From Candidatus Eiseniibacteriota bacterium (GTDB taxonomy: Bacteria > Eisenbacteria > RBG-16-71-46 > CAIMUX01 > VGJL01): 64,000 nucleotides of DNA. A program made the translations under genes and the position numbers. Positions 1-14,841 of this stretch are shown in pieces (position 1 is the stretch's first letter; the number at the start of each line of letters is the position of its first letter). The DNA lies in NCBI GenBank assembly GCA_041946735.1, contig JBHGAY010000003.1, forward strand, positions 1 through 64,000. Direction: 5' to 3'. The notes below the pieces were generated by a model that saw nothing but the letters and a program-made list of their open reading frames with translations, did no database searches and was not told where the DNA came from.

Positions 1-158
1 TGGCGAGCCTCTTCGAGGGGACGCTGCCGGCCGGTGAGCACGTGCGGACGTGGACCGGTGTGGCGGACAACGGCGCGCCGGTCGAGAGCGGGGTGTACTT
101 CGCGCGGCTGACGAGCGACGACGGTCGCGCGTCGCAGAAGCTCATCTTGCTGAAGTAA
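1..158 (+). CDS. 3' end (partial) of a CTD-bearing protein whose tail is near-identical to that of 404..2431
   Basis: Frame from nt 3 reads ASLFEGTLPAGEHVRTWTGVADNGAPVESGVYFARLTSDDGRASQKLILLK*, with TAA at 156-158. It has 8 mismatches in 158 nt versus 2274-2431. Confidence 0.9.
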   Translation, partial: ASLFEGTLPAGEHVRTWTGVADNGAPVESGVYFARLTSDDGRASQKLILLK

Positions 159-170
159 GCAGCGGCTCCG
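1..170 (+). repeat. Direct repeat copy 1 (CTD coding end plus 12 nt of 3' UTR); copy 2 is at 2274-2443
   Basis: By-eye alignment gives 8 substitutions in the coding part and an identical TAAGCAGCGGCTCCG. Confidence 0.95.
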
Positions 171-191
171 GACCGCGGAGCCTCGGCGACG

Positions 192-223
192 GGCCCGGGC
201 GCTGAGAAGCGTCCGGGCCTCTT
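192..223 (+). terminator. GC-rich hairpin, probable intrinsic terminator
   Basis: GGCCCGGGCGCT-GAGA-AGCGTCCGGGCC followed by TCTT, downstream of the stop at 158. Confidence 0.6.
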
Positions 224-293
224 CCGTAGGTGCCCGCCGCACGCGCGAGCGATGGCCCGCTCCCTTCCCTGCCCGCCGCCTCCCCGTCCGATG

Positions 294-322
294 TGGCAAA
301 TCACGAGCGATGCGCCTACAAT
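294..322 (+). promoter_or_regulatory. Putative sigma70 promoter of the selenoprotein gene
   Basis: TGGCAA(294-299)-17 nt-TACAAT(317-322), with SD GGAGGAGG at 391-398 before ATG 404. Confidence 0.55.
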
Positions 323-403
323 CCGTTCGGCGTCGTTCCACGCTCGTCTCCGCGTCGCGGGGAGCGTGGGGGGCTCGTGGCAACAACATCGGAGGAGGTC
401 CCC

Positions 404-2431
404 ATGTCCAGGAAGACGGCCGCCATGGCGGCGATCCTCGTGATCCTCGGCGGCATGTGCGCGGCGCCCGCTTGGGCGGGCGTGCCGAGGGTCGTCGTCT
501 GCGAGGACTTCGGTTACGTGAGCTGACCGTACTGCCCAGCGGCCCGGTGCGGGCTCGAGACGGTACAGCAGGAGATGGGCTTCGAGCGGGTGGTCCACTG
601 GGAGTACCACACGCAGCAGGTGTTCGCGAATCCCGAGGCGCAGGCTCGCGCGAACTGGTACGGCGTGAGCGGCGTCCCGACGGTGAAGATCGATGGACAG
701 CGGACGGTAGTGGGCGCCGGGAGCTGCGAGACAGCCGCCGCGCAGTACACCGTGAACATCAACTCGCGCCTCGCCGAGACCGGGGGCACGAGCCCGATTT
801 CGATCGACGGCAGCTACCTGGCGGCCGGCAGCACCGTGTCGGTGGAGGCGACGTTCCGTCTCGAGGATCCGGTGGTCCTGACGAACCTCCGCGCCACCCT
901 CCTCATCTACGAGAACGGAATCCTGTACGACGGCACCGTCTACGACTACATCGAGCGCGACCTCTACGACGAGAACATCACGCTCGCCGGCGCCGGAGAC
1001 GAGGCGACCGTGGCCTACGACTTCGCGATCAACCCGGCGTGGAACATCGACAACATCCGGGTCGTCGCCTTCGTCCAACAGACGGCCACGAAGGAGATCG
1101 TGCAAGGACTGATGATGGGGGCGGACGACTTCCGGTTCGACATCGCCCGGCCGATCGCCTCCCTGCCGGATGGCGATGGCATGGCCGTCTTCACGGGCAT
1201 CCTGAAGAACACCGGCGAAGCGACCGACACCTTCACCCTGGAGCCGGGAGCTCCATTCGGCGACTGGACGACCGACTTCCTCGTCTGCGGCGATCCGAAC
1301 CCGCACAGCGGACCGTTTGACGTCGTGCTCGATCCCGAGGAATCGTGCGACGTCCGGATCCGGGTCCACACCGACGCCGCGATGGAGGCGAGGTCGGGAA
1401 GCTTCCAGGTCACCTCGGCCTTCTCGGCCCGGACGTGCGAGCGCGAGATGAGGGTCTTCAACGGCAGCTACGCGGTCCTGTTCGTGGACGACGATCGGGG
1501 CCGTTCCGACGAGGTTCCCTGGATCCAGGCGCTCGACCAGCTCGGGGTCCTGCACGACGACTGGAACGTCATGACGCAGGGATACTCGCCGTGGATGGGC
1601 CAGATCCTGGGCTACGACTACATGCTCTGGGAGACCGGCTTCGACTTCCTCGACAACACGATCCTGCTCGCGAGCGACGAGGCGACGATCCGAAGCTTCC
1701 TCGACGCCGGAGGGTCGGTCTTCGTCTCGAGCCAGCACTACGTCGACACGAAGACCGAGGTGACGCCGTTCATGCGGGACTACTTCGGAATCGCGTCGTT
1801 CGTCGAAGAGGTCGACTACACGACGATGAACGGGGTGCCCGGCGATCCGATCGGCGACGGGCTTTCGTTGCACCTGACCTTCTCGATCCCTTCCTTCAAC
1901 GAGGGGGACCAGGTGCAGCCGGCGCCGGGCGCGGCCACCTGCTTCCGCGATCCGAGCAACCGGAGCACCACGCTGCGCAATCAGGTGGTGGACGGCGGCA
2001 AGTGCGTCTTCATGGCGGCCGCGTTCCATGCGGTCGACAACAATCCGTACCCGAACAACATGAGAGGCGCGCTCGAGAGGATCATGGACTGGCTCGAGCC
2101 GCAGCCGTCGGCGGGTGCGGAGGATCAGGCGGGGGCGCCGCTCTTCGGCTCGCGGATCGACGCCGCGCAGCCGAACCCGTTCCATCCTCGCACGCAGATC
2201 TCGTTCACCCTCTCGCAGGCGGGCGCCTCGGGGCCCGTCCGCCTGGAGGTGTTCGACCTGAGCGGCCGGAGGGTGGCGAGCCTCTTCGAGGGGACGCTGC
2301 CGGCCGGTGAGCACGTGCAGACGTGGACCGGAATGGCCGACAACGGCGCGCCGGTCGAGAGCGGGGTGTACTTCGCGCGGCTGACGACCGACCAAGGTCG
2401 CGCGTCGCAGAAGCTCATCTTGTTGAAGTAA
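404..2431 (+). CDS. Exported Omp28-like/thioredoxin-fold selenoprotein (Sec at codon 41, UxxC) with FlgD-Ig/Por-type CTD, 675 aa
   Basis: SD plus ATG 404 and a signal peptide (MSRKTAAMAAILVILGGMCAAPAWA), then VVVCEDFGYVS-TGA-PYCP in frame with ORF 575..2431. Omp28-like motifs: EYH, RANWYGVSGVPTVKIDG, WNIDNIRVVAFVQ. C-terminus PNPF...VFDLSGRRV...SGVYFARL...KLILLK. Confidence 0.85.
526..564 (+). promoter_or_regulatory. Bacterial SECIS-like stem-loop immediately 3' of the in-frame UGA
   Basis: Upper stem GCCC(542-545)/GGGC(551-554) with loop GGTGC, about 20 nt after UGA. Lower stem ACCGT(526-530)/ACGGT(560-564). Confidence 0.65.
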
Positions 2432-2443
2432 GCAGCGGCTCCG
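2274..2443 (+). repeat. Direct repeat copy 2 of 1-170
   Basis: See copy 1. Confidence 0.95.
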
Positions 2444-2468
2444 TACGGCGGAACCTCGAACCATCGCG

Positions 2469-2506
2469 GGCCCGGCCTCCCCGATCGGGGGGCCGGGCCT
2501 TTCTTT
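2469..2506 (+). terminator. Intrinsic terminator
   Basis: GGCCCGGCCTCCCC-GATC-GGGGGGCCGGGCC followed by TTTCTTT. Confidence 0.8.
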
Positions 2507-2534
2507 CGACCTGGCTGCGCCCTTCGTCGCGGGT

Positions 2535-3350
2535 TCAGGGACCGAGGAAGAGCCCGAGCCCGATGGCGAAGGCGGCCGCCACGATCGATTCCTGGATGCC
2601 GAGCTTCGGAATGTGCAGCTTGCCATCCTTCCGGCGAGGAACGGGCAGGACGGAGCGGACCAGATAGAGGCCGGGGAGAAGGCCGGCGACGGGGCGATGG
2701 GCGAGGACGCCGGCCACGAGCGAGACGAATAGCAGTCCCAGACTGACCGGATGGTTCGCGCGGCGATCGAAGAGCGGCCGGCGCCCGGGAACCTCGCGGG
2801 AGAGGCGCACCCGCACCCAGATCAGGCTCAGCAGGAAGTAGGAGGCGGAGCAGAGGGCGAGCAGCGCGGCGTCCACCGTCCGGCCGCCGCCGACGTAGAG
2901 CCCCGCCCCTCCCTGGACGGATGTCGCGACGATGCCGAGGATCTCGAGCTCGCTCTGTCGCGCGAGGCGGCCTCGGTGGCCGAAGAGGCCGAGGAGGGCG
3001 GCGGCCAGCGCGGGCGCGAGGGCGAGGATCGCCTCCGGCCGCGTGGCGATCCCGTCGACGAGCAGCGCGAGGCCGAGCATTCCGGTCACGAGCCCCGCGT
3101 CGCTGAAGCGGTCGCGGCGGCGCAGCGCGGCGCCGAACGCCTGGAACGACCCGAAGAGCAGGAGCGAGGCGGCGGCCCAGATCGCGGCGTCGAGGGTGTC
3201 GGGCGCGGCGATGAGCGCGGAGATCTGCGGGCCGAGCAGGTAGGCCCAGGATCCGTGCTCCTTCGGGACCAGGCCCTTCCAGTCGCGAATCGTCCAGTGG
3301 AGCCAGCGGCCGCGCAGCTTCCTCGCCGTCGCGGGGGCGCTCACCGTCAC
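2535..3350 (-). CDS. YwiC-like family membrane protein
   Basis: PKEHGSW motif, multiple TM segments and C-terminal KLGIQE. The GTG start overlaps the stop of the upstream Crp/Fnr gene (GTGA). Confidence 0.75.
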   Translation of the reverse strand: MTVSAPATARKLRGRWLHWTIRDWKGLVPKEHGSWAYLLGPQISALIAAPDTLDAAIWAAASLLLFGSFQAFGAALRRRDRFSDAGLVTGMLGLALLVDGIATRPEAILALAPALAAALLGLFGHRGRLARQSELEILGIVATSVQGGAGLYVGGGRTVDAALLALCSASYFLLSLIWVRVRLSREVPGRRPLFDRRANHPVSLGLLFVSLVAGVLAHRPVAGLLPGLYLVRSVLPVPRRKDGKLHIPKLGIQESIVAAAFAIGLGLFLGP

Positions 3351-4033
3351 TCGATCCCCTCCACTCGGTCGCGCAGGGCTTGCTCGTCGAGGATGCGGAT
3401 CTGCCGCCCCTCGATCCCGATCACCCCCTCCTGCTCGAAGCGATGGAGGTTGCGGGAGACGATCTCGCGCACCGTCCCGAGACGGTTCGCGATCTCCTGA
3501 TTCGAAAGCGTGAGAGGGAAGGAGGGGCCGCTGCGATCCGCGATCTCGAGGAGGTATTTCGCCAGGCGCTGCGGAACGCCGAGCAGGGACAGCTCCTCGA
3601 CGAGCGCGACCAAGTGGCGCAGGCGCCGGCCGACGACACGCAACACTTCGAGCGCGATCTCGGGCCGGTCGCGCAACAACTCCTCGAAGGCGGGGCGGGG
3701 AAGGAGCAGGACGCGGCTCTCTTCGAGCGCCGCGCAGGAGACCGGGTACGGCTCGCCGTCGAGGAGCGGCAGCTCGGCGATTACCGCTCCGGGCGCCTCG
3801 ATCGCGACGATCTGCTCGCGCCCGGACGGAGAGGCGCGGTAGAGCTTCATGGCGCCGCAGAGGAGCAGGTACATCCCGCGGCACGAATCGCCTTCGGCGA
3901 AGAGATCCGCCCCGCGGCTCACCTTCACGATGCGGCTCGACGTCGCGAGCGAATCGAGCCCGCGCTGGTCGATCCCGGCGAGAAACGGCACGCGCCGGAG
4001 TGCGGCCACCCGTTCTCCCTCGATACCGGTCAT
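3347..4033 (-). CDS. Crp/Fnr-family transcriptional regulator (HcpR/Dnr-like, no N-terminal FNR Cys cluster)
   Basis: cNMP-type domain (LFAEGD, SPSGREQIV, AELPLLDG) and HTH (LSNQEIANRLGTVREIVSRNL). ATG at 4033 has a GGGGAG SD. Confidence 0.92.
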   Translation of the reverse strand: MTGIEGERVAALRRVPFLAGIDQRGLDSLATSSRIVKVSRGADLFAEGDSCRGMYLLLCGAMKLYRASPSGREQIVAIEAPGAVIAELPLLDGEPYPVSCAALEESRVLLLPRPAFEELLRDRPEIALEVLRVVGRRLRHLVALVEELSLLGVPQRLAKYLLEIADRSGPSFPLTLSNQEIANRLGTVREIVSRNLHRFEQEGVIGIEGRQIRILDEQALRDRVEGIE

Positions 4034-4105
4034 CGCTCCCCCGTCCGTTCGGTCGTCCTGTCGCGAGCGTAGGGGCAGCGCGCGGATGTGAGAAGGGCGA
4101 ACGGC

Positions 4106-4119
4106 GTGACCCAGGTCAT
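4106..4119. promoter_or_regulatory. Candidate Crp/Fnr-type operator
   Basis: GTGAC-CCAG-GTCAT (TGA-N6-TCA dyad) in the divergent Crp/hemerythrin intergenic region. Confidence 0.55.
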
Positions 4120-4280
4120 CGCGCGGGGCGGGTCGGACGGCGGATCTTCGCGCGTTGCCGCGGAGTGGCGAGCCGGGACGCTTCGGCCGGTGACGATCCA
4201 GCCGGCGATGCCGGACTGGACCGGGACGAACCGGGGAGCAGGCCGGCATCGACGAGCCGGCGAAACGGGCCTAGGAGGGA

Positions 4281-4844
4281 ATGATGACCGAACGTCCGAC
4301 CGATATCCTGCGCGACGAGCACCAGCAGATCGAGGCGGTCCTGCAAGTGCTGGACGATCTGGCCGAGGAGGCGAGGCGCGGCCCGTTCGACAGGGCAAAA
4401 GCCGGCGAGATCCTGACCTTTCTCCGCGAGTTCGCCGACCGCAACCATCACGGGAAGGAAGAGCGATGCCTCTTCCCGCGCCTGGCCCAGCACGGATACG
4501 GCCCGGAGCTCGGGCCGGTGGCCGTGATGCTCCACGAGCACGAGCTGGGCAGGCAGTTCCTGCGTCAGATGGGATCCGCCCTCGACGAGCCCGAGGCGGA
4601 AGGGGCGGCGAGGCGATTCGCCGACGCGGCGAACGGCTACGTGCAGCTTCTCGCGCATCACATCGAGAAGGAGAACATGATCCTCTTCCGCATCGCGGAA
4701 TCGTTGTTCGACGAGGACGACCAGGCCGCGGTGAAGGCCGGCTTCGACGCGGTCGAGAGGGAGGAGATGGGGGACGGAGCGCGCGAGCGGCTGCAGGCTC
4801 TCGCCGGCCGGATCGTCTCCTCCTCGGGCAAGACGAGCGCCTGA
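4281..4844 (+). CDS. Hemerythrin/HHE cation-binding domain protein
   Basis: EHQQI, HHGKEERCLFP, HEHELGR and HHIEKENMILF motifs; SD AGGAGG. Confidence 0.92.
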   Translation: MMTERPTDILRDEHQQIEAVLQVLDDLAEEARRGPFDRAKAGEILTFLREFADRNHHGKEERCLFPRLAQHGYGPELGPVAVMLHEHELGRQFLRQMGSALDEPEAEGAARRFADAANGYVQLLAHHIEKENMILFRIAESLFDEDDQAAVKAGFDAVEREEMGDGARERLQALAGRIVSSSGKTSA

Positions 4845-4905
4845 CTGCCGGGGTAGGCAGCGGGGGGGGAGGGGCGGCCGGCGTTCGGCTCGCCCCCCTC
4901 CCTCG

Positions 4906-6234
4906 TCAGGCTTCGCGGATCTCGGTCCGGCTCTCGAGGAAGCGCGCGAGGAGGTGGAAGTCGGAGTCCGGCCGGATGAACCGCACCTCCGTCTTCAACG
5001 TCTCCGAATTGACCAACTCCTGGAACGGCACGTAGCGCAGGTCGAGCTGGCCGGTCGTGCTCACCATGTACCCGTCGAGGTTCTCCTCGACCAGGGCCCG
5101 ATACGCTCCGATCCCGAGCTGGCTGCCGAGCATGACGTCGAACGCGTGCGGCGGAGCGCATCGCGACTCGTAGCCGATCTGGAGTCCGATCACCTTCTTC
5201 TCGCGTCCCGTGCGCCGGTGGTACTCGTCGGAGACGAGCCGGGCGATCAGCTTTCCGATGTCGATCCGGCCGATCGAGATGTTGCCGTGCTCGTCCTTCG
5301 GGATGCTGCGGATATAGCTCTCCGGGAACAGCTCCGCGAGCCCTTCGGCGAGCACGACCGTCCCGAAGAACTTCTTCTCGCGCTTCTCGCGGATCAGGAT
5401 GAGGTTGACGATCTGATCGACGAGCGACTCGACGCGGAGGCGCCGCTCCTTGCGCGTCGCTCCCGTTTCGCGATCGACCACCTCGTCCTCGAACGTCATC
5501 TCCTCCACGACGTCCTCGACCGAGAAGACCATGTTCGCCTCGCCGGCGATCCCGACGCCGTAGGAGAGCCAACCCGCCTTTCGTCCCATGCATTCGGCGA
5601 TGTAGTAGACCCGCCCCGCTTCGGCGTCGGCCCGGAGGTTCTTCACCTCCTTGGCGAGGAAGTCGACCGCCGTGAAGTAGCCGAACGTGAAGTCGATCCC
5701 TTGATAGTCGTTGTCGATCGTTTTCGGGAGGTGGACGATCTGCACCTTCTTCGCTCCCGGGGGGAGGCGCTTCTGGTACTCGTGGAGGAAGTTCGCCGTC
5801 TTCAGCGTGTCGTCGCCGCCGATCGAGATGAGCGCGTCGATCCCCATGTCGAGGAACGCGGAGTAGACATTGCGGAGCCGCTTCGTCTTCTCCGGGTCGT
5901 CCAGGTCGGCAGGCTTCGAGATCCCTTTGCCCGGATTCGCGCGGGAGGTGCCGATCAGGATCCCTTGCGAGTTGCGGTTGCCGGTCACTTCCTTGTGGGT
6001 GAACTCGCGATAGTGCTCGTCCCGGATCAGACGGTTCGTCACGGGATGGTAGAGCTGCAGGTTCTCGTACCCGTGCATGAAGCCGATCACCTCGCGCCCG
6101 TCGTCGAGGAAGCTGACGGCCGTCGAGCTGATCACGGCGTTGGCGCCCGGCGCCGGACCGCCCGCGAAGACGATCCCGACGCGGCGGACATGATCCCCTC
6201 TCTTCTCCCGTGTGGCCCAGTGGATGCGCGACAT
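4906..6234 (-). CDS. pfp: Pyrophosphate-dependent 6-phosphofructokinase
   Basis: GGPAPGAN, GTSR, IGGDDT, PKTIDND, MGR and GYESR motifs. GGDD plus PKTIDND is the PPi-type signature. Start MSRIHW at 6234. Confidence 0.88.
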   Translation of the reverse strand: MSRIHWATREKRGDHVRRVGIVFAGGPAPGANAVISSTAVSFLDDGREVIGFMHGYENLQLYHPVTNRLIRDEHYREFTHKEVTGNRNSQGILIGTSRANPGKGISKPADLDDPEKTKRLRNVYSAFLDMGIDALISIGGDDTLKTANFLHEYQKRLPPGAKKVQIVHLPKTIDNDYQGIDFTFGYFTAVDFLAKEVKNLRADAEAGRVYYIAECMGRKAGWLSYGVGIAGEANMVFSVEDVVEEMTFEDEVVDRETGATRKERRLRVESLVDQIVNLILIREKREKKFFGTVVLAEGLAELFPESYIRSIPKDEHGNISIGRIDIGKLIARLVSDEYHRRTGREKKVIGLQIGYESRCAPPHAFDVMLGSQLGIGAYRALVEENLDGYMVSTTGQLDLRYVPFQELVNSETLKTEVRFIRPDSDFHLLARFLESRTEIREA

Positions 6235-6684
6235 GAACCTCCCCTCCCCCTGTTCGGGAGCGCCCCCCAGCCCGTGGCGGAACAGGACGATCCGGCCCGA
6301 AGCGCCCCGACCGCAAGACGGTATCGGTCCGCCGGGAAACTGTCCAGATCCCGGGCGGCGGTGTCGGGGGGGCGCGAGGAGGCGGAGGGCGTACGGCGTC
6401 GCGTCGCGTACGGAATGCCGGAAGCTGGTGGAGGCAAAGGGAGCGTCGCAGCAGCGGCCCGAGGGTCGCCCCGCGACGTCCACACAGTCGGTCGAGGCTT
6501 TCACGGGCGACGGGAATGAAAGCGCAGAGGCCCGCTCTCGCCGACATCCGGCAGAATAGGACGGCGCGAAGGCGACCCGCCAGTGAAGACTCTGTGAGCA
6601 ACGAGCGAAGCGAAGCGGAGAATGCCGGGCAGCGACGGTTCTCCGCTTCGCACTCGGGTCGTTCGTCGTTTCAGCCGCTGCGAG

Positions 6685-8592
6685 TCAGCGGATGCGGACG
6701 ATCGGACGCCGGATGACCCGCGCAGCGCCCCCCAGTGAGCTCGTCGCCTCGAGCCGCAGCACGTAGTAGCCGGCCGGGACGGTTCGCCCTGCGTCGTCCC
6801 TGCCGTCCCAGGCGACGTGTCCGACGGTGGCCGCTCCTCCGTTTCCGGCGGCGATCAGGCCTCGCACCTTCCTCCCCGACGCGTCGTAGACGGCGAGGTC
6901 GAAGGAGCTTCCCGCCGGCATCGTGAACGAGAGCTCCGCGCTGTCCCGCATCGGGTTCGGGTGCGCCTCGAGCGCGAGGGCGGACCAGCCGTCCCTGCCG
7001 CCACCCGCGCCCCCGCCCGCCGCCTCCTGCTCGGGCGCGCCCGCGGGGTCCTGGCCCTCGATCTTCATCGCGATCGAGTAGTTCGGGTAGATGAGGGTGA
7101 GGTCGCTCAGGCGGCGCATGATGCAGTGCGGGCCGCGGACGCCGACGTTCGCGCCTGCGTCGTAGGCGGGATCGTTCGCGCTCAGCCGGAGCCACCAGCG
7201 CCCCGGCTCGAGCGGCGCGTTCCACGCCTGGCTCACCCAGGCGACGGAGTCGGGACTGAAACGGTACTGGTAGTCCGCCCAGGCGATCGGCTGGTCGAGG
7301 TCGGGAAAGCCGTTGGTTCCATCGTCCGGATAGAGCGTCGCGCGGAAGCCGTCCACCTGCCAGTTGATCGTCCATCCGTCGAGGTCGATCCGGCGTGCCA
7401 CGGTCGGTTCGGTCAGGTCGAACGGCTGGAAGATCTCGTAGCCGGTCGCCGGGTCGCCGCTCAACGTGCGGCTGAGGGTGACGGTGTCGCTGCCGTTGTC
7501 GACGATCCAGTCGATCGGCCGGCATGGATCGTCCTCGCACTCGTCGGGGACGCCGTTGCCGTTGCAGTCCTCGCTCACGCCGCCCACGACGTCGTCGAGG
7601 TCGCGCACGCCGTTGCCGTTGCAGTCGGTGATCCCCTGGACGACCGGCACGTCGAAGGAGATCCCGGCCGGCGAGAGTCCGGCCGGACTGTTGTAGATCG
7701 TTTCGACCCCCGTTCCGTCGAGGTTCGCGCGGCGCACGGCGCCGGCCAGCTCGTCGGTCCACCACGCTTGCCCACGCTCCGGATCGATCCGCAGGCTGAT
7801 CAATCCCGACGAGACCCCCTCTCCGGGAGACATGTCGACCAGCACGGTGAAGCCGGTGTCGTCGAGGTTCGCGCGGCAGAGGACGTCGCTGTTCGTGTTC
7901 GCGTCGAGGAAGTAGATCCGGCCGGCCGCGGCGTCGAGCGCGATCGAGGTCACTGTGTTCACGCCCCGCACGACCGTCTCGACCCCGCCTGTTCCGTCCA
8001 TGCGGATTCGACGGATCGCGTCCTCGGCGCAGAAGTAGACGTAGCCGTTCGTCGCGTCGGCGGTCGGAGGCCCGACGTAGGAGAAGTTCGGGTCGTAGGG
8101 ATCCGCGGCGAAAACGGTCTCGAGTCCGGTGCCGTCGAGATTCGCGCGCCGGATCAGGCCGCTCGCCGTCCCTTGGGGAGGAGAGTCGGCGAAGTAGAGC
8201 TTGCCGGCATCGAGATCGAGCGACAGGCCGCGCGGCAGGCGCAGGCCGCTCAGCAGAAGCTGCGACGCCGTGCCGTCGAAGTTCGCGCGCCGGATCGTCC
8301 CCGATGTGTAGTTCCCGTTGGTCCAGTAGAGCTTCGGGAGGGACGGATCGACGTCGCAGGCGAGAGGCAGCCACTCGCTCGTGGGGGGCGAGAAGAGAAG
8401 CTGCGCGTCGCTTCCGTCGAGGTTCATCGAGCGAATCTTCGGGTTGTTGTACTGATACTCGGTCAGGATCAGCCGGGACTGCGCCCCGGCATCGGACGGA
8501 CCGAGCGCGAGCGCGAAGGCAAGGGCCAGCGACAGCAAGGCTGCCGTCATGGCGAGGGAGACGGCCCTGGGTGGGAGGCTGAGGCAGGACAT
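6685..8592 (-). CDS. Secreted YWTD (LDL-receptor class B) beta-propeller protein with DCNGNG repeats and CTD
   Basis: Signal peptide; LYWTN/LYFAD/IYFLD/WWTD blades each followed by a RANxD-type motif; two DCNGNGVxD repeats; PNP...YDASGRKV...WDGRDDAG...GYY. SD GAGAGGAG. Confidence 0.85.
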   Translation of the reverse strand: MSCLSLPPRAVSLAMTAALLSLALAFALALGPSDAGAQSRLILTEYQYNNPKIRSMNLDGSDAQLLFSPPTSEWLPLACDVDPSLPKLYWTNGNYTSGTIRRANFDGTASQLLLSGLRLPRGLSLDLDAGKLYFADSPPQGTASGLIRRANLDGTGLETVFAADPYDPNFSYVGPPTADATNGYVYFCAEDAIRRIRMDGTGGVETVVRGVNTVTSIALDAAAGRIYFLDANTNSDVLCRANLDDTGFTVLVDMSPGEGVSSGLISLRIDPERGQAWWTDELAGAVRRANLDGTGVETIYNSPAGLSPAGISFDVPVVQGITDCNGNGVRDLDDVVGGVSEDCNGNGVPDECEDDPCRPIDWIVDNGSDTVTLSRTLSGDPATGYEIFQPFDLTEPTVARRIDLDGWTINWQVDGFRATLYPDDGTNGFPDLDQPIAWADYQYRFSPDSVAWVSQAWNAPLEPGRWWLRLSANDPAYDAGANVGVRGPHCIMRRLSDLTLIYPNYSIAMKIEGQDPAGAPEQEAAGGGAGGGRDGWSALALEAHPNPMRDSAELSFTMPAGSSFDLAVYDASGRKVRGLIAAGNGGAATVGHVAWDGRDDAGRTVPAGYYVLRLEATSSLGGAARVIRRPIVRIR

Positions 8593-8789
8593 TTCGACTC
8601 CTCTCGTTGGTGTGTTGCGCCTCGGGAGAATCGGTGCGCAACGAGGATAGCGGGTCGGGGAGGAGCGGGGCAATCGTCGCGGAGTGGGGGTTGCCGGGGA
8701 GAGGACGAAGCGGCCGCCCTCCCGGAGGAGAGCGGCCGCCGTTCGCACGAAACCCGCCCGATAGGCGAGCGTCCCTGCGATCTGCGTCT

Positions 8790-10604
8790 CTACTCGATCT
8801 TCTGCACGCGCCCCGTCAACGGCGTCGCCCCGGCATCGCCGGTCTCGACGCGGAAGAAGTAGATGCCGCTGCCGAGGGTGCGGCCGGCGTCGTCGCGCCC
8901 GCTCCACAGGACGCTTTGCGGTCCGGCGGAGAGAGAGCGAGGCGCCAAGCTCGCGACACGGCGGCCCGCCGCATCGAAGAAGAGGACGCGCGCCGCGCCC
9001 GCCTGCGGCATGTCGAAGCGGATCGCGACCTGCGAGTGGAACGGATTCGGATAGGCGCGCCCAGCGAAGGTGGGGGCGCTCGCGCCGCCCGCCTCCGGCA
9101 CGCCGGCGGCGAGCGCCAGGACGGCGGCGGAGGCCGGACCGAGGTTCGGCCGCGGGCCGATCAGCCGCGGGCCGTTCTGCGGCGTGCCCGTGTCGTGCAG
9201 GATCGAGCGCAGCTGCAGCGGTGTGAGCGGCCGGCCGGTCAGGGCGGCGAAGATCCCCTGGAGGCAGAGCGTGGAGCCGACGACCATCGGAGAGGCGCCC
9301 GAAGTCCCGCTGAACGCGGCTGTGTACTCCGTCTCGTAGCCGCCTCCGCTGTACAGGTCGCCATAGCCGGTCGAGACGATCGAGGAGCCCCAGCCCTGGA
9401 CGTCCATCCGGGTGCCGTAGTTCGTGAACCACTCGGCGTCGAGTCCGTTCGGCGTGCCGGCGCCGACCATGATCGCTCCCGAGTCCCGGACGTTGCGATC
9501 GAACAGGCCGCCCCAGCTCGCGTCATCGAGGTTCTGGCTGCCGTTCGCTCCCGCCTCGACGCAGACGACGCCGCGCGCCCACACGCTCGTCCAGATCACG
9601 TCGTAGTTCACCTGCAGGTACTCCATCGGCGTCGCGCTGTGGCCGGGAGGATACATCTGCAGCTCGATCAGCCAGACGCCCCCTTCGGGCAGATTGTCGA
9701 GGGCCTCCTGGAAGCGATGCGGGACGTTGGGCCACTCGGACTCGAGCACCGCCACGACGCCCCACTCGGTGTCGGCCGCGAATCCGTTCACCCCGTAAGC
9801 ATTGTGCATCCCGATCACCTCGCCGAGCACGGCCGTCCCGTGGTCGATGTAGGCGGGGTTCGTGCTCTGGCCCGCGCCGCCGACGTGGAACAGCTTCGCC
9901 TGATCGAAGTCCTCGTGCTGCTCCGTCCAGGCGAGCTCGACGTCGATGAACTTCTGGCCGGCCCCCTTGCCTCCGGGGAGCGCCCAGGCGGCGGCAGCGT
10001 CGAACCCGGTCGGCGGGGCGTAGAGGTATCCCTGCTGGCCGGTGAAGTCCGGGGTGCGGAGATCGCGGGGAGCGTTCGCCCGGGTCGCGAGCCCGGCGGG
10101 CGCGACGGTGGCGGACGCGGCGGGAAGGGCCGCAGGCTCGACGATCGGCGCGGGGTGCGCGATCTCGACCTGCGGCAGCGCGTTCAGCTCGTTGATCGCG
10201 CGCGCCAGCTCCGCCTTCCCGGCCGCGATCCGGACGTCGAACCAGAGCGAGAGATCGGGGCCGACGGCGCCGCTCTTCGCTTCGCCCGCGGCCTTCCAGG
10301 CGCGGACGGTGGCGCGGTCCCACGTGAACGTCGGCCGGATCTCGAGGGCGCTCGCGCGGGCGAGCGCGGCGCGGACGGGGGAGAGGTCGAGCCGGTCGTC
10401 CTCCAACCGCCCGCTCTCCAGGCGGACGTTCGATCCCTCGACGAACTTCACGTGAAGCCATTGGCCATCGAAGCGATCCAGGTCGGCCGCCGTCCACGAA
10501 TGAATCGGTCCGACCGGGCGGGCCGTGTCGCGCGCATGGCAGACGCGGGCGGACGTCACGCCGAGCGCGAGCAGGAGGACGAGCAGATACGGGATGCGAG
10601 TCAT
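8790..10604 (-). CDS. S8 (subtilase) serine peptidase with CTD
   Basis: Signal peptide and prodomain; catalytic D (FIDVE), H (DHGTAV), N (AGANG) and S (SGTSGASP); PNPF...WSGRDDAG...SGIYF. Confidence 0.92.
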   Translation of the reverse strand: MTRIPYLLVLLLALGVTSARVCHARDTARPVGPIHSWTAADLDRFDGQWLHVKFVEGSNVRLESGRLEDDRLDLSPVRAALARASALEIRPTFTWDRATVRAWKAAGEAKSGAVGPDLSLWFDVRIAAGKAELARAINELNALPQVEIAHPAPIVEPAALPAASATVAPAGLATRANAPRDLRTPDFTGQQGYLYAPPTGFDAAAAWALPGGKGAGQKFIDVELAWTEQHEDFDQAKLFHVGGAGQSTNPAYIDHGTAVLGEVIGMHNAYGVNGFAADTEWGVVAVLESEWPNVPHRFQEALDNLPEGGVWLIELQMYPPGHSATPMEYLQVNYDVIWTSVWARGVVCVEAGANGSQNLDDASWGGLFDRNVRDSGAIMVGAGTPNGLDAEWFTNYGTRMDVQGWGSSIVSTGYGDLYSGGGYETEYTAAFSGTSGASPMVVGSTLCLQGIFAALTGRPLTPLQLRSILHDTGTPQNGPRLIGPRPNLGPASAAVLALAAGVPEAGGASAPTFAGRAYPNPFHSQVAIRFDMPQAGAARVLFFDAAGRRVASLAPRSLSAGPQSVLWSGRDDAGRTLGSGIYFFRVETGDAGATPLTGRVQKIE

Positions 10605-10717
10605 GTACCCCTCCGGGATGCAGGTGGAAGCCAAACGACGTCGCTAGAGGCGGAAGAAACCGCATCGATGGTACCACGGAGCGGCGGGCGGGCGGGAGCG
10701 GGCTTCCGAGCCGCGCT

Positions 10718-12505
10718 TCAGCGAATCTTCACCGCCCGTGCGGCGGGCGGCGGGATCCCGGCATCGGTCTCGACGCGCAGCAGATAGAGCCCGCTGGCCG
10801 CCTCACGGCCGGCATCGTCGCGGCCATCCCATGCGAGCGTTCGCGGGCCGGCGCGGAGCGGGCCGTGGAACGGCTGGGCGATCCTCCGTCCGGAGGAATC
10901 GAGGACGCGCAGATCGACCCCCGCGTCGCGCGCGAGCCAGAACCGGATCGTGAGACCGGAGCGGAATGGATTGGGGGAGGCGAGCAGGCGTGCGACCGGG
11001 GGAGCGGGGAGCGAGTCGGCCGGAAGGAGCGAGGGGTCGAGCGTGGCGGGGATCGCCGCTGCCAGGTTCGGCCGCGGGCCGATCGGGAGCGGCCCCGCGT
11101 GCGGAGTGCCGGTCTCGCGGAGGATCGCGCGCAGCCGGATCGGGTCGAGTGGAGCGCCGCGCCACGCGCGGTAGGCCGAAGCGGCGCAGAGGGCGGCGCC
11201 GCTGACCATCGCCGCGGCGCCCGAAGTCCCGTTGAACGTGGCGGTGTACTCGATCTCCGGGGAGCCGAGCCCGTGGAGATCGCCGAAGCCGGTCGTCACG
11301 ATCTGCGAGCCCCAGCCGTGCAGGTCCACGCGGCTTCCGTGGTTCGTGAACGACTCGGCGGTGAGATCGGCGGGCTTGCCGGCCGCGACCAGGATCGCGC
11401 CGGAGTCGCGGATGTGGCGGTCGAAGAGGCCTTCCCAGGAGGGATCGTCGAGGTCCTGGCCCCCATTGCCGGCCGCCTCGACGACCGCGATGCCGAGCCC
11501 GTAGACGATCGTCTCGATCGCGTCGTAGTTCGCCTGCAGCCACTCGATCGGCGTCGCGCCGCGCCCATCGGGGAACATCTGGAGCTCGACCAAGAGGAGA
11601 TCGCCCGGGCGGAGCTGGGTCGCCGCTTCGAGTAGGCGATCGGCGGCGAAGGGATGCTCGGCCGGCGCCAGAGCCTCCACGCCCCACGAGGCGCGCGGCG
11701 CGAAGCCGTCAATGCCGCGGCCGTCGTGCTTCGCGATCACGATGCCGAGGTCGGCCGTCCCGTGGTCCGAGTAGAGCGGGAGGCCGTCCTGCGGCGCGCC
11801 TCCGTCGAAGAAGAGGAGGTCGGGATCGAAGTCGACGTGCTCCTCCGTCCAGGCGACCTCGACGTCGACGATCCGCGCGCCGTCGCCGTCGCCGCCGGGC
11901 AGCCACCATGCGGCGGGAGCGTCGAGGCCGAGCGGAGCGGCGTAGAGGTATCCCTGCCTCGGGGAGAAGTCGGGGATCTCCGCGGCTGGCGCGGTTCGCG
12001 AGCGCGCCGCCGGTGCCGTTGCGCCGGCGGGACGTGCGATGCCGGCCGGGTGCGCGATCTCGACGACGTCGAGCCGGTTCAGCTCGCGAAGCAGCCGTGC
12101 GGCGGCGTCCGGACCGCCTGCTCGGTCCAGGCGCAGATCGAACCAGAGGGAGAGGTCGGGCAGCGGGCGCTTCGTCGCCGAGCGCATCGCGCGCAGCGTT
12201 GCACGATCGGCCGAGAAGCTCGGCCGGACCTCGACGACGCCGTACCGTTCGAGGACGGCGCGCAGGCGCGAGAGATCGAATCGGTCGTCGACCAGCCGTC
12301 GGTCCTCGACACGCGCCTCGGATCCCTCGATCAGCTTCACCTGGATCCAGGAGGGATCGAAGCGCGCCGGATCCAGATCGGCGGCCTCCCAGCGGACCCG
12401 AGGCCCGACCGTCCGCGCGAGGCAGGAGGTGACCGCGAGCGGCGTCGCATGGCACGCCACGAGCAGAATCGCGACGGCCGCCGTCCTGTAGATCTTGCGG
12501 GACAT
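10718..12505 (-). CDS. S8 (subtilase) serine peptidase with CTD, paralog of 8790..10604
   Basis: IVDVE, DHGTAD, AAGNG and NGTSGAAA motifs; PNPF...WDGRDDAG...SGLY. Start MSRKIY at 12505. Confidence 0.9.
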   Translation of the reverse strand: MSRKIYRTAAVAILLVACHATPLAVTSCLARTVGPRVRWEAADLDPARFDPSWIQVKLIEGSEARVEDRRLVDDRFDLSRLRAVLERYGVVEVRPSFSADRATLRAMRSATKRPLPDLSLWFDLRLDRAGGPDAAARLLRELNRLDVVEIAHPAGIARPAGATAPAARSRTAPAAEIPDFSPRQGYLYAAPLGLDAPAAWWLPGGDGDGARIVDVEVAWTEEHVDFDPDLLFFDGGAPQDGLPLYSDHGTADLGIVIAKHDGRGIDGFAPRASWGVEALAPAEHPFAADRLLEAATQLRPGDLLLVELQMFPDGRGATPIEWLQANYDAIETIVYGLGIAVVEAAGNGGQDLDDPSWEGLFDRHIRDSGAILVAAGKPADLTAESFTNHGSRVDLHGWGSQIVTTGFGDLHGLGSPEIEYTATFNGTSGAAAMVSGAALCAASAYRAWRGAPLDPIRLRAILRETGTPHAGPLPIGPRPNLAAAIPATLDPSLLPADSLPAPPVARLLASPNPFRSGLTIRFWLARDAGVDLRVLDSSGRRIAQPFHGPLRAGPRTLAWDGRDDAGREAASGLYLLRVETDAGIPPPAARAVKIR

Positions 12506-12516
12506 CGCCCTCGAGG

Positions 12517-14841
12517 CTACTCCGCGATCGTCAGTCCCAGGAACGGTACGATCGGGATCCCGCCGACAACATCGCGCTCGTCCAGGTCGTCGTTCCACTC
12601 GATCGAGGTGGTGTTCGTCCGGTTCGTGACGTTCAGGACCTCGAGGAAGGCGCAGCCGTTGCGCCCGAAGAGGTGGATCGTTCGCTCGAAGCGCAGGTCG
12701 AGGCGCGCGTAGGGCGCCATCCGCGCGGAGAGCGGACGGCCCCACAAGGGCACGACGACCTCCTCGCCGCTGTCCCACGGCGTCAGCCGTCCGACGAGCG
12801 GGGTGTACGGCGCGCCGCTCGTCGCCCGGAACGTCGCGATGAACCAGGAGGACGATCCGGCGGGCAGCCGCACGTTGGCGAGGAAGCTGTGCGTCCGCTC
12901 GGTCGAGACCGGGGTGCCGGACGGGAAGACGCCTCCCTCGAAGCGGCTGCGAAGCCACCCGTGGGCCAGGCGCGCCTCCATCTTGCGGAAGAGGCTACCC
13001 TGGCCGCCGTCGATGGCCGGCACGAGCCGCACCTCCGCCTCGATGCCGCGCGCGTGGGCGCGTCCGTTCGAGACCGCCTCGTACGTCTCGCGGTCCGCCG
13101 GAACGAGAAGGTCCTCGGTCGTCCGGTCGTAGGCCTCGACGTCCCATCGAAAACGGCCTGCTCCGCCGCTCAGCCCGGCGCTCGCCAGGAAGGCGCGCTC
13201 GGGACGGAGGTCCTTCGCCGAGGAGATGACGAGCGTCGCTTCGCGCGAGAACCCCTGCACGCCGTCCGCGTACTGCAGGAACAGGCCGGTCCCGAGGCGG
13301 GCGTGAAGGCCGTGCGGCAGCTCGCCGCGCAGCGCCACGCGCGGACTCGCCTGCAGCGGCGTCGGACCGCCGGTGTCGTCGAAGCGGATTCCGGGTGACA
13401 GGTACCAGCCGTCGCGCAGGGCGGTCACGTCCTCGAGATAGAACGCGCGGTAGGTGAGATCCCCGTCGATGTCGATCGAGGCGGGACGGGGGAACGGGTC
13501 GGGATTCGGGTCGTGGGTCTTGCTCCAGACGGTCCGGCACGAGTACCGGTCGATCTGTCCCCCGATGCGGACGACGTGAGGGGACGTGACGACCTCCAAC
13601 TCCTGCGAGAGGGAGAAGCGGTTGGAGCGGATGCTCCCGTCCGCCCAGACGACGTCACCCTCCTCGTTGTGGATCTCGATGCGGTTTCGGTCGTGCAGCC
13701 CCGCGAAGCGCGTCGTCAGGCTCGTCCGCCGCCCGAGCGCCCAGCGGTGCTCGATCGACCCGGTGGTCGTGCCGCATCCGGCGTCGGTCACCACCTCGCC
13801 GGTGTCGCTCTCGTCGGGAAGGATCAGGTTCACCCCTTCGTCGCTTCCCGAAGCTCGGAGCGTCAGCCTGTGGCCGGGCGCCAGATCCCAATCGATTCGC
13901 CCTTGCCCTTCCTGCAGGAACGGGTACTGCCGCCCCTCGCCGGCGGGCGGATGGATGAAGAGGTCGTAGTAGGTGCGGCGGGCCCCGACGATCCAGCTCC
14001 CCGAGCCGCCGGGAAGCGGCCCTTCGATCGCGCCCGACGCGGCGAGCAGCGAGAGGGTGCCGCGGCTGCGCAGATGGTTGCGGTCCCCCTCACGCGTGCG
14101 GAGGTGGACCATCCCCGAGGTGCGGTTGCCGTAGCGGGCGGAGAAGCCGCCCGCATACAGCTCGACCGATTCGACGACGTCGGGATTGGCGAGCGACAAG
14201 CCGCCCCCGAGGACGATCCGCAGGCGGTACGGGTTGTACGCGTCGAAGCCATCGACGAGGAACAGCACCTGATCCGGCTCGCCGCCCCGGATCGAGAGGA
14301 TCGTGGCGAACTCGTTCATCGACTCGACCGAGCGGCTCTCCGACAGCACCCGCACCGGATCCTGGAAGCCGCCCGGCGCCCGTCGGATCTCGGAGTCGAG
14401 GAGCCGCCTCGTCGGGGGCCGGGCGATATCGGTGGGGACCCGTTCACCGCGCACCTCCACCGTCGGCACGCGGTAGAGCTGCGGCTCGATCCGGATCGTG
14501 AGCGCGGCGCGCGCCGTCCCCTCGTGGAGCGATACACGCTCCCATGCGGACGCTTCGTAGCCACCCGCGAGCGCGCGCACTCGGTAGGAGCCGGCCGCCG
14601 GGACGGTCAGGCGGAAGCGGCCGAGAGAGTCGACGAAGCCGACGTAGGAGATCTCCTCGACCTCGATGCGGGCCGCGGGGACAGGCCGCTCCGTCAGCCG
14701 ATCGAGGACGAGGCCCTCGATCTCGAACGACGGCGGATGCGGATCGGCGGCCTGGGCGCCGCGCGAGACGAGAAGCGAGAGCGCGAAGACCGCGAAAGTA
14801 AGCGCTCGAAGTGCAGCGCGAGAGGAGGCGACCCGCTTCAC
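12517..14841 (-). CDS. TonB-dependent receptor with N-terminal carboxypeptidase-regulatory-like domain
   Basis: IEGLVLD...DSLGRF N-domain; plug (IRGG, VELYAGGFSARYGNRTSG); barrel with SPRVAL and EVLNVTN. GTG start overlaps the upstream stop. Confidence 0.88.
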   Translation of the reverse strand: MKRVASSRAALRALTFAVFALSLLVSRGAQAADPHPPSFEIEGLVLDRLTERPVPAARIEVEEISYVGFVDSLGRFRLTVPAAGSYRVRALAGGYEASAWERVSLHEGTARAALTIRIEPQLYRVPTVEVRGERVPTDIARPPTRRLLDSEIRRAPGGFQDPVRVLSESRSVESMNEFATILSIRGGEPDQVLFLVDGFDAYNPYRLRIVLGGGLSLANPDVVESVELYAGGFSARYGNRTSGMVHLRTREGDRNHLRSRGTLSLLAASGAIEGPLPGGSGSWIVGARRTYYDLFIHPPAGEGRQYPFLQEGQGRIDWDLAPGHRLTLRASGSDEGVNLILPDESDTGEVVTDAGCGTTTGSIEHRWALGRRTSLTTRFAGLHDRNRIEIHNEEGDVVWADGSIRSNRFSLSQELEVVTSPHVVRIGGQIDRYSCRTVWSKTHDPNPDPFPRPASIDIDGDLTYRAFYLEDVTALRDGWYLSPGIRFDDTGGPTPLQASPRVALRGELPHGLHARLGTGLFLQYADGVQGFSREATLVISSAKDLRPERAFLASAGLSGGAGRFRWDVEAYDRTTEDLLVPADRETYEAVSNGRAHARGIEAEVRLVPAIDGGQGSLFRKMEARLAHGWLRSRFEGGVFPSGTPVSTERTHSFLANVRLPAGSSSWFIATFRATSGAPYTPLVGRLTPWDSGEEVVVPLWGRPLSARMAPYARLDLRFERTIHLFGRNGCAFLEVLNVTNRTNTTSIEWNDDLDERDVVGGIPIVPFLGLTIAE

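Follow-up and report, generated by a model that had tools for sequence, protein, structure and literature searches.

A predicted exported selenocysteine-containing protein with an HBP35-like head and a type A sorting domain in a Candidatus Eiseniibacteriota bacterium

The window analysed here, 64,000 nucleotides long, comprises positions 1–64,000 of contig JBHGAY010000003.1 (Candidatus Eiseniibacteriota bacterium, assembly GCA_041946735.1, forward strand). Close to its beginning, the list of open reading frames contains two entries on the plus strand, 230..526 and 575..2431, which share one frame. As the initial annotation of this DNA had proposed, translated read-through of positions 404–2431 unites them into a single frame with a lone TGA at 524–526. 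The complete predicted selenoprotein coding sequence (404..2431, plus strand) specifies 675 aa and is closed by a TAA stop codon. The Shine-Dalgarno sequence GGAGGAGG (391..398, plus strand) can be read directly 5 nt upstream of the ATG at 404, and a weak match to the sigma-70-like promoter consensus, GTGGCA-18-TACAAT, is located at 293..322 of the same strand (9 of 12 positions agree; one site found, with 0.1 expected from shuffled sequences). An intrinsic-terminator-like hairpin of 14 pairs followed by a T-run is present on the plus strand at 2468..2506, 37 nt past the stop codon. The very start of the window (3..158, plus strand) encodes the C-terminal end of an upstream tandem paralog, the body of which is on contig C24; the two contigs join through an exact overlap of 46 nt, and the combined frame closes at 677 aa. 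The gene described here is the third of three Sec-form paralogs in this tandem array.

The predicted signal peptide (residues 1–25; 404..478, plus strand) was recognized by eye from its RK n-region, hydrophobic core and A-W-A motif followed by G; the AF2 model has a helix at residues 2–18 of this region, with low pLDDT. A lipoprotein signal, considered since Omp28 is a lipoprotein family, was discarded on inspection by eye: G-G-M-C fits the lipobox consensus poorly, while A-W-A followed by G suits signal peptidase I. Around the TGA the protein text reads VVVCEDFGYVS-TGA-PYCPAARCGLETVQQE-M, the methionine codon being at 575. The read-through frame, the columns of paralogs and homologs and a contig comparison assign the TGA (524..526, plus strand) to residue U41 of a putative redox motif, U41-P-Y-C44 (524..535, plus strand), that aligns with the motifs of HBP35 and MJ0307 thioredoxin. 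The fragment beginning at M58 contains neither a hydrophobic N-terminus nor CxxC. The Shine-Dalgarno sequence, start codon, signal peptide and residues before the TGA are exactly as first described, and translation from ATG 404 reproduces both the 675-aa product with U at residue 41 and the lack of a signal peptide or CxxC of its own in the downstream reading frame.

Other sequencing data agree with the TGA. Contig X2 of an independent run (535 nt, corresponding to window positions 336–870) shows 0 differences from the window, and no variant, TGC, TGT and TGG included, is listed at 524–526 in any of four runs. Only one read could be placed from the raw-read run X10, which makes that run uninformative on these positions. 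A sequencing error at the TGA was ruled out by the paralogs, the homologs from other genomes and the identical independent contig.

The genome encodes the whole machinery that the initial annotation had suggested looking for: selA (407 bits), selB (349 bits; cut-off 242), selD (388 bits), which carries an in-frame TGA of its own, and tRNA-Sec (selC) with the anticodon tca. A lone TGA occupies the UxxC column in six of the seven paralogs of this genome, the seventh having C-Q-Y-C, and UxxC stands at the equal position in all 29 best-per-genome loci from the 29 other genomes fetched; these six paralogs and 29 loci make up the 35 Sec forms compared below. Cys, encoded by TGC or TGT, occupies the aligned column in all 21 homologs without a TGA that were compared, 20 of them fetched and one the C12 copy of this genome, a pairing that had been anticipated. 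To judge from these alignments, the recurrence of a single TGA in one column is far in excess of chance.

Read with translation table 11, the TGA would be a true stop, leaving a 40-residue leader ORF and a separate 618-aa gene that starts at ATG 575, or a pseudogene. Public gene calls agree with this: of the 38 top database entries, 35 begin after the TGA. Both signal peptide and active site are missing from these truncated entries, which bear no other name than “T9SS type A sorting domain-containing protein” or “hypothetical protein,” so the expectation that annotation pipelines would miss the gene was correct. The hairpin downstream of the TGA, taken by itself, is likewise not unusually stable. 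The 618-aa piece, however, would have a secretion CTD without a signal peptide. The 5' piece has a protein sequence that is conserved in 30 genomes, with the TGA always at the column that is Cys in the TGA-free homologs. Moreover, residues 25–57 are modelled with high confidence within the HBP35-like domain, and a full Sec machinery is encoded. True termination at this codon is thus highly improbable.

The same holds, to the same degree, for decoding of UGA by other means, either by reassignment to Trp or Gly or by near-cognate read-through with Cys or Trp. An organism using code 4 or code 25 would likewise show an open frame over the TGA, but TGA is a real terminator in three of the seven paralogs of this genome and in 8 of the 29 listed family genes elsewhere, each gene has one internal TGA, always in the redox Cys column, and tRNA-Sec is encoded together with selA, selB and selD. 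Furthermore, the hairpin beside the UGA is conserved and is mostly lost in Cys forms. The reading of the codon as Sec41 in a UxxC head of thioredoxin/Omp28-like type, put forward in the initial annotation, is supported by the Sec machinery, the Sec/Cys pairing and the SECIS-like hairpin; on this evidence TGA 524–526 almost certainly encodes selenocysteine U41 of U-P-Y-C.

The SECIS-like hairpin GCCCG-GUG-CGGGC (542..554, plus strand), identified by comparison across genes, lies 15 nt after the UGA and codes for the conserved residues A-R-C-G-L; a G541–U555 pair could lengthen its stem. Given a gap-free alignment of the 35 Sec forms that starts at the TGA, RNAalifold found unprompted a 5-bp hairpin (columns 19–23/27–31) with 96% of the cells of the consensus stem paired. 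Two of the five stem pairs show compensatory changes (C-G to G-C in four sequences, G-C to A-U in one), GCGCG/CGCGC being a natural variant of the stem, and none of 500 shuffles attained the covariation score of the stem. The full stem is present in 33 of the 35 Sec forms vs. only two of the 21 Cys forms; the other two Sec forms are off the consensus register, with the stem CGCCA-GGUG-UGGCG shifted by one base, as read by eye. A GC-rich hairpin also follows the UGA of the genome's selD gene; its loop, rich in G, starts 20 nt past that codon, the same distance as here. A G in the apical loop is reportedly a criterion of bSECISearch, and the GUG loop at 542–554 contains it. Judged by its sequence, the hairpin, located just 3' of the UGA and with G in its loop, has the form of a SECIS-like stem-loop. 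Its stem of 5–6 bp is short for a bacterial SECIS. Folded singly, positions 515–600 show no stability beyond that of shuffled sequence (z 0.13), so single-sequence stability gives the SECIS no support, which comes from the comparison across genes. No family reached the gathering threshold in an Rfam scan of the whole window; hence no curated SECIS family matches.

The AF2 model of the full protein (mean pLDDT 86.3) and profile and structure searches revealed all the parts named in the initial annotation: an Ig-like segment, an alpha/beta domain with the sequence VLFVDDD and a FlgD/Por-type tail. Residues 25–242 (476..1129, plus strand) form an HBP35-like/Omp28-like module, a thioredoxin fold with a beta-sandwich, as indicated by the match to 5y1a and by profile. 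A second, Ig-like beta-sandwich, to which no family match was assigned, is seen in the AF2 secondary structure at residues of about 243–353 (1130..1462, plus strand). It is followed by an alpha/beta domain of GATase1-like type (ThuA / GH42 domain B / IFT52-N-like; residues 356–567; 1469..2104, plus strand; Z 15–18), which matches 3soz, 2gk3, 3rht, 1t0b, GH42 domain B and IFT52-N with Z-scores of 14.8–18.1. Class I glutamine amidotransferases use a Cys-His-Glu triad. An alignment of 31 sequences contains no Cys, His or Glu that is invariant or 90% conserved within residues 354–567; the domain has the GATase1 fold but, judged by this conservation, lacks a conserved catalytic triad and is non-catalytic. 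The C-terminal beta-sandwich (residues 584–675; 2153..2428, plus strand) is a predicted sorting domain of the T9SS type A / FlgD Ig-like kind, supported by the AF2 model, by TIGR04183 (37 bits vs. cut-off 23, residues 590–672) and by PF13860 (FlgD_ig; 36.6 bits vs. cut-off 27), whereas PF18962 (Por_Secre_tail) remains below its cut-off (18.5 vs. 27).

The fold of the head is shared with HBP35 of Porphyromonas gingivalis (5y1a): model residues 25–242 superimpose with Z 23.1 and an rmsd of 2.3 over 209 aligned residues, and Foldseek gives a TM score of 0.58, normalized to the target. The family profile matches HBP35 at E 1.7e-6, with an identity of just 17%, and W-C48-G-Y-C51-P of HBP35 aligns column by column with w-U41-x-Y-C44-P here. 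Both proteins have a signal peptide, predicted in the Eisenbacteria protein, and a C-terminal sorting domain, and HBP35 (344 aa) resembles in length and layout the short Eisenbacteria paralogs of 340–360 aa. The Eisenbacteria protein differs in having Sec in place of Cys48, in the additional Ig-like and GATase1-like domains between head and CTD, and in its occurrence in another phylum and in multi-copy tandem arrays. According to the parts of the HBP35 study that bear on these points, C48 and C51 are needed for its insulin-disulfide reductase activity, the CTD is required for reaching the outer membrane, and the protein binds hemin and supports growth under hemin scarcity, a smaller truncated form of 27 kDa being also hemin-binding (PMC2907840).

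A selenoprotein family with the same kind of head has been described before. “Hypothetical protein GOS_C” (Zhang and Gladyshev, 2008; PMC2398784) corresponds to NCBIfam NF045500, “Omp28-related selenoprotein” (Table 1 of PMC13188914); in the relevant passages of these two papers it is a protein defined from marine reads, with a Trx-like fold, a UxxC Sec motif, many Cys homologs and a function that is not known. The likeness to the Eisenbacteria protein, namely the Trx-like fold and UxxC, is seen from the family description and from the NF045500 model, which covers residues 29–246 (E 1.5e-16). The Eisenbacteria protein reaches 60.8 bits, far under the cut-off of 200, which indicates a new multi-domain branch, and a six-frame search of the genome with NF045500 found no copy at that cut-off (best 53.9 bits). 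In contrast to the Eisenbacteria protein, GOS_C is described in those passages with no mention of a sorting domain or of extra domains.

Matches to the Omp28 families are marginal or weak. PF11551 aligns with residues 83–230 of the head (E 2.9e-8) and narrowly misses its cut-off (34.2 bits vs. 34.9), and NF033782 reaches 28.1 bits (E 1.1e-6; cut-off 150). These families comprise Cys forms that are outer-membrane (lipo)proteins, such as the Bacteroidales “Omp28-related outer membrane protein” P0047 with W-C-P-Y-C and a Por tail, whereas the predicted active site of the Eisenbacteria protein has Sec and its signal is, by eye, not of the lipoprotein type. Within the PDB, direct sequence comparison gives MJ0307 thioredoxin (1fo5; E 1e-5) as the best match, its catalytic C-P-H-C falling on U-P-Y-C; this is, however, a cytosolic archaeal protein of 85 aa, and the TIGR00411 score of the Eisenbacteria protein is 30.8 vs. 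a cut-off of 92.75. The C-terminal half has other relatives, the T9SS-dependent M6-like metalloproteases (NF052323; the PF05547-bearing P0042, P0044 and P0048). Query residues from 321, 346 or 354 to 675 align with the C-terminal 330–355 residues of P0042, P0044 and P0048 at 24–27% identity; the shared part consists of the GATase1-like domain and the CTD, with the end of the second beta-sandwich included in P0042 and P0048. At the N terminus these proteins carry a protease instead of the thioredoxin-like selenoprotein head.

The novelty claimed in the initial annotation for an exported, CTD-tagged selenoprotein was overstated, as both the UxxC family NF045500/GOS_C and the CTD-exported Cys form HBP35 are known; the multi-domain branch is new. 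Literature searches retrieved no published work linking Omp28 with a selenoprotein or Eisenbacteria with selenocysteine or selenoproteins, and nothing relevant on selenoproteins together with type IX secretion; neither “Omp28” nor “T9SS” occurs in the text of Haft's 2022 preprint.

The protein most likely functions as a selenol/thiol-disulfide oxidoreductase. Selenolates bind soft metals tightly, and it is conceivable, though unlikely, that Sec is inserted and U-x-x-C mainly binds a ligand (heme, metal or metalloid) at the surface, the arrays then being capture or detoxification proteins. A Pfam search of the 12 neighbouring ORFs in 2535–18444 revealed no DsbD/CcdA-type or selenium-related partner and no electron donor, consistent with such a role, and a TonB-dependent receptor is encoded 10 kb from the gene. 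Likewise, HBP35, the closest characterized homolog, binds hemin and aids growth when it is scarce; on the other hand, the protein has the motif and the fold of a catalytic thioredoxin, HBP35 reduces insulin disulfides by the aligned cysteines, and its truncated form still binds hemin (PMC2907840), so that hemin binding may be independent of the redox motif.

Homologs of some components of a type IX secretion system were found in the genome. PorU (596 bits vs. cut-off 420) and SprA have homologs above their cut-offs, and the CTD is matched by about 50 other ORFs. A subtilase encoded in the window ends in the same CTD. PorV-like (111 bits at most vs. cut-off 250) and GldK-like (79 at most vs. 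cut-off 350) matches are weak, and the GldM model has no match in the genome, being likewise silent in all control genomes. These gaps, and a Por_Secre_tail score under threshold where FlgD_ig is over it, would suit a protein that passes the inner membrane and stays periplasmic or in the outer membrane, with a FlgD-like Ig domain that is no T9SS signal in this lineage. This reading is improbable, although less so than a true stop: TIGR04183, the PorU sortase and the SprA translocon homologs are all above their cut-offs, and the same terminal domain on some 50 ORFs, the subtilase among them, is the pattern that T9SS cargo would be expected to show. Since the genome is 94.8% complete, components that were not found cannot be counted as absent.

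Taken as a whole, the explanation that positions 404–2431 are one gene, in which UGA is decoded as Sec through SelB and the hairpin and which encodes an exported HBP35-like oxidoreductase with a CTD, is very probably correct. The ribosome would read UGA 524–526 as Sec, aided by SelB and by the GC-rich hairpin within the coding region, 15 nt downstream, to give a precursor of 675 aa, headed by a signal peptide. In its mature form the protein would open with the HBP35-like thioredoxin-fold module, in which Sec41 would replace the N-terminal, attacking cysteine, and continue with the second beta-sandwich, the putatively non-catalytic GATase1-like domain and the type A sorting CTD. The Sec pathway would probably carry it through the inner membrane, after which the CTD would deliver it to the cell surface, as in HBP35. 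It is also possible, more tentatively and with the odds somewhat against it, that Eisenbacteria display arrays of Sec enzymes at the surface via a type IX-like pathway, as a system for redox reactions or capture that depends on selenium and works outside the cell, and that the hairpin fixes the residues A-R-C-G-L that follow the active site.

If this is correct, these proteins would be the first T9SS cargo to contain selenocysteine, and the use of selenium by soil bacteria would reach beyond the cytoplasm on a scale masked by annotation. Because gene callers end a frame at UGA, uncultured phyla are credited with too few selenoproteins; read correctly, this gene no longer encodes an anonymous cargo protein but a redox enzyme amenable to testing. 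The uncharacterized GOS_C/NF045500 type is now tied to a biochemically studied homolog, HBP35, and this homology offers ready assays, namely insulin reduction, hemin binding and CTD-dependent export. If the protein reaches the surface, it may be asked how a selenol enzyme stays reduced outside the cytoplasm and why the lineage spends selenium on many copies. With a minimal SECIS gained or lost along with Sec, the family is an unusually clean natural set of Sec/Cys switches, useful for training selenoprotein predictors. A whole-protein pattern search of the genome contigs matched 20 stretches, none of them confirmed. All sampled genomes of its Candidatus Eisenbacteria order contain the family, and as many as 11 loci match it in a single one.

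Under translation table 11 the locus is rendered as two open reading frames in the same frame, 230..526 and 575..2431, which the initial annotation had taken for parts of one gene. This is borne out: the TGA at 524-526 is the sole in-frame TGA, and read-through yields a single open frame of 675 residues from ATG 404, with U at position 41. A Shine-Dalgarno sequence, GGAGGAGG (391-398, plus strand), lies 5 nt upstream of the ATG. The N terminus, consisting of M-S-R-K, a hydrophobic core and A-W-A followed by G, is signal-peptide-like as judged by eye, while the piece beginning at M58, as had been noted, lacks both a signal peptide and a CxxC motif. A 535-nt contig from an independent metagenome run (X2), belonging to a study different from the probable source of the window, is identical to window positions 336-870. 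No variant is listed at 524-526 in any of the four runs compared with the window, these data being assembled contigs and not raw reads; the one raw-read run placed a single read. A terminator-like hairpin (2468-2506) is located 3' of the gene. Overall, the selenoprotein gene is real and has good support.

The genome (4.89 Mb, 72 contigs, 94.8% complete, 68% G+C) contains selA, selB, selC and selD, the four genes that the initial annotation proposed to look for: selA (407 bits), selB (349 bits, cut-off 242), selD (388 bits; it too contains an in-frame TGA) and tRNA-SeC with anticodon tca. The selD product (locus L010, G000:C2:108941-109867, minus strand) is itself a selenoprotein with the motif G-U-A-S-K. 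A six-frame search with the first 249 residues revealed seven paralog loci in the genome, six with exactly one in-frame TGA and one with none. In translation all six TGAs share one U-x-x-C column, and the seventh paralog carries W-C-Q-Y-C. Reassignment of UGA in the genetic code is disfavoured, since three of the seven paralogs terminate ordinarily at TGA.

Matches were obtained in 45 of 201 sampled genomes of the phylum, this one included. Within the order they occur in all five sampled genomes of the window's own family and in 1/1, 12/12 and 14/14 sampled genomes of the three other families, and the largest other family has them in only 4 of 87 sampled genomes. Among the 150 matches listed (58 more exist), a hand count gives one in-frame TGA in 111, none in 38, and a TGA plus a TAG in one. 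The position of the Sec/Cys column was checked in a subset comprising the 29 best loci (one per other genome) and 21 TGA-free homologs (20 of 38 listed hits in rank order, skipping two partial matches, plus the genome's own copy on contig C12). U-x-x-C is found at the same place in 29/29 of the former, and the aligned codon is TGC or TGT in 21/21 of the latter, the cysteine that the annotation had expected opposite the TGA. UGA 524-526 is almost certainly a selenocysteine codon.

The element CCCGGUGCGGG begins 16 nt after the UGA in 6/6 local Sec forms. Independently, RNAalifold predicts one 5-bp hairpin (columns 19-23/27-31) in a gap-free alignment (A1) of the 60 nt from the TGA in 35 Sec forms; in the window it corresponds to the SECIS-like GCCCG-GUG-CGGGC at 542-554. 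Paired cells amount to 96%, and two of the five pairs show both-sided changes, C-G to G-C in four sequences and G-C to A-U in one. The covariation score is reached by 0/500 shuffles, a figure that is not a probability, the sequences being related, and all slid registers are far worse than the observed one. On one side the C-G to G-C switch leaves the Ala codon synonymous (GCC to GCG), and on the other it replaces Gly by Ala (GGG to GCG), a combination not easily attributed to selection on the protein alone. Two Sec forms, L037 and L053, are off the consensus register and carry CGCCA-GGUG-UGGCG in columns 18-31, shifted by one base; the GGUG kept at the apex suggests that recognition involves the loop rather than the sequence of the stem. 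All five pairs are present at the consensus offset in 33/35 Sec forms versus 2/21 Cys forms. The Cys forms L055 (G156:C172) and L057 (G170:C271) contain a perfect GCGCG-CUG-CGCGC, with the loop CUG, not GUG, and look like recent Sec-to-Cys conversions with a vestigial SECIS. The peptide after the motif is A-R-C-G-L in Sec forms, where the hairpin accounts for its conservation by constraining the peptide, versus A-Y-x-G-L in more distant Cys forms. The hairpin of selD is GC-rich, with 8 bp, and the distance from the UGA to the start of its G-rich loop is 20 nt, as in the window gene. Against the SECIS reading stand the short stem, the lack of a match to any Rfam family, and a stability of the window hairpin, folded alone, that does not exceed that of shuffles (z 0.13). 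The comparative evidence supports the proposed decoding mechanism.

An AlphaFold2 model (mean pLDDT 86.3) was built on 31 full-length sequences, comprising 28 read-through Sec forms and three Cys forms, in which C41 (standing in for U) and C44 are invariant. The head (residues 25-242) matches HBP35, the surface thioredoxin of Porphyromonas gingivalis (PDB 5y1a; Z 23.1, rmsd 2.3 Å, 209 residues). HBP35 was also found by the family sequence profile (E 1.7e-6), with its C48 and C51 aligned opposite U41 and C44; by analogy, the window protein probably has a redox function. The Ig-like segment of the initial annotation corresponds to a second beta-sandwich (residues 243-353). Residues 356-567 match GATase1-like folds (Z 14.8-18.1), those of STM1381, STM3548, a Planctomyces GATase1-like protein, ThuA-like proteins, GH42 domain B and the IFT52 N-terminal domain. 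Across the 31 sequences this part conserves neither Cys nor His nor Glu, and it is therefore read as a putative non-catalytic scaffold or binding domain. M6-like metalloproteases (P0042, P0044, P0048) have the same GATase1-like half and C-terminal sorting domain (CTD). The tail beta-sandwich occupies residues 584-675, and the proposed FlgD/Por-type tail is recovered by FlgD_ig (PF13860, 36.6 bits, cut-off 27) and the T9SS type A sorting domain (TIGR04183, 37 bits, cut-off 23). The other Pfam and NCBIfam matches are Omp28 (PF11551), just below its cut-off (34.2 bits, 34.9), and, further below, MJ0307 thioredoxin (TIGR00411; 30.8 bits, 92.75) and the Omp28-related selenoprotein NF045500 (60.8 bits, 200).

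NF045500 is listed as "Hypothetical protein GOS_C", a UxxC protein with one Sec, in Table 1 of a 2026 review (PMC13188914). The 2008 GOS paper, where it describes GOS_C, gives 74 Sec sequences, 312 Cys homologs, a fold of the Trx-like type and no evidence on function (PMC2398784). On these two descriptions, the novelty claimed initially is overstated, the kind having already been catalogued, and the family does not represent a system of a new kind. Its score misses the NF045500 cut-off, and it carries additional domains as well as a sorting tail; it is therefore filed as a variant rather than a member. It is of moderate interest, being a large family that had stayed hidden and one that connects GOS_C with a characterised protein. 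Literature outside subscription journals yielded nothing linking selenoproteins to Eisenbacteria, Omp28 or T9SS.

Going by the names given to public relatives, the lineage belongs to Candidatus Eisenbacteria. Of the 38 best database entries, 35 start downstream of the TGA (query start 51-119), so that annotation pipelines do miss the gene, as had been anticipated; one is a contig-edge fragment, and the two beginning upstream are Cys forms with W-C-T-Y-C. The first residues of one entry, P0003 (99% identical over query residues 163-675), end in D-V-Y-K-R-Q, which we take to be the Nextera mosaic-end adapter in translation. Run X2 has a dangling end with these same adapter-like letters at window position 899, and the public contig of P0003 probably starts with adapter sequence.

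The presence of a signal peptide and a CTD argues for export of the window protein. The genome encodes PorU (596 bits, cut-off 420) and SprA (above cut-off), and about 50 other ORFs share the CTD match. PorV-like and GldK-like matches fall below their cut-offs and GldM has no match in the genome, its model being silent in control genomes too, so we can only infer surface delivery by T9SS. A surface location is likewise suggested by analogy with HBP35.

The end of contig C24 (reverse complement) is identical to the start of C23, the contig of the window, over 46 nt inside repeated CTD sequence, where the assembly break falls. Joining the contigs completes the frame of a 677-aa paralog, which makes the window gene the last in a tandem of three Sec-form genes (677, 677 and 675 aa); besides the window gene itself, the stretches concerned are window 1-158 and C24 (reverse strand, ~1-4146). 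Comparable clusters occur by coordinates in other genomes, e.g., five matches within 13 kb on G110:C10. Two architectures exist, a long one of ~650-716 aa and a short one of 340-360 aa with head and CTD only. Short Sec paralogs of 360 aa (G000:C71:58416-59450) and 346 aa (G000:C18:15556-16245), both with TGA as the true stop, resemble HBP35 in layout and size. No redox partner is evident among the 12 neighbouring ORFs scanned. The products of the neighbours (10718-12958, 6685-9432, 12517-15567, 15832-18444 and 2535-3884, all on the minus strand) include an S8 subtilase whose tail is FlgD_ig, a further protein bearing a CTD, a TonB-dependent receptor that has a CarboxypepD_reg domain, a protein with FG-GAP repeats and a membrane protein that is YwiC-like. 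In two runs, contig depth is raised three- to four-fold across the CTD-coding part of the window gene (2150-2445) and variant letters are numerous there, which reflects how many near-identical copies of the CTD the genome contains. In another genome, the last ~120 residues of the homolog L026 (G140:C6:968345-972064) are Arg/Gly-rich nonsense that looks like a frameshift, and the adjacent copy (G140:C6:972070-972839) is split into two matches; both may be copies in decay, or errors of assembly, inside a tandem array.
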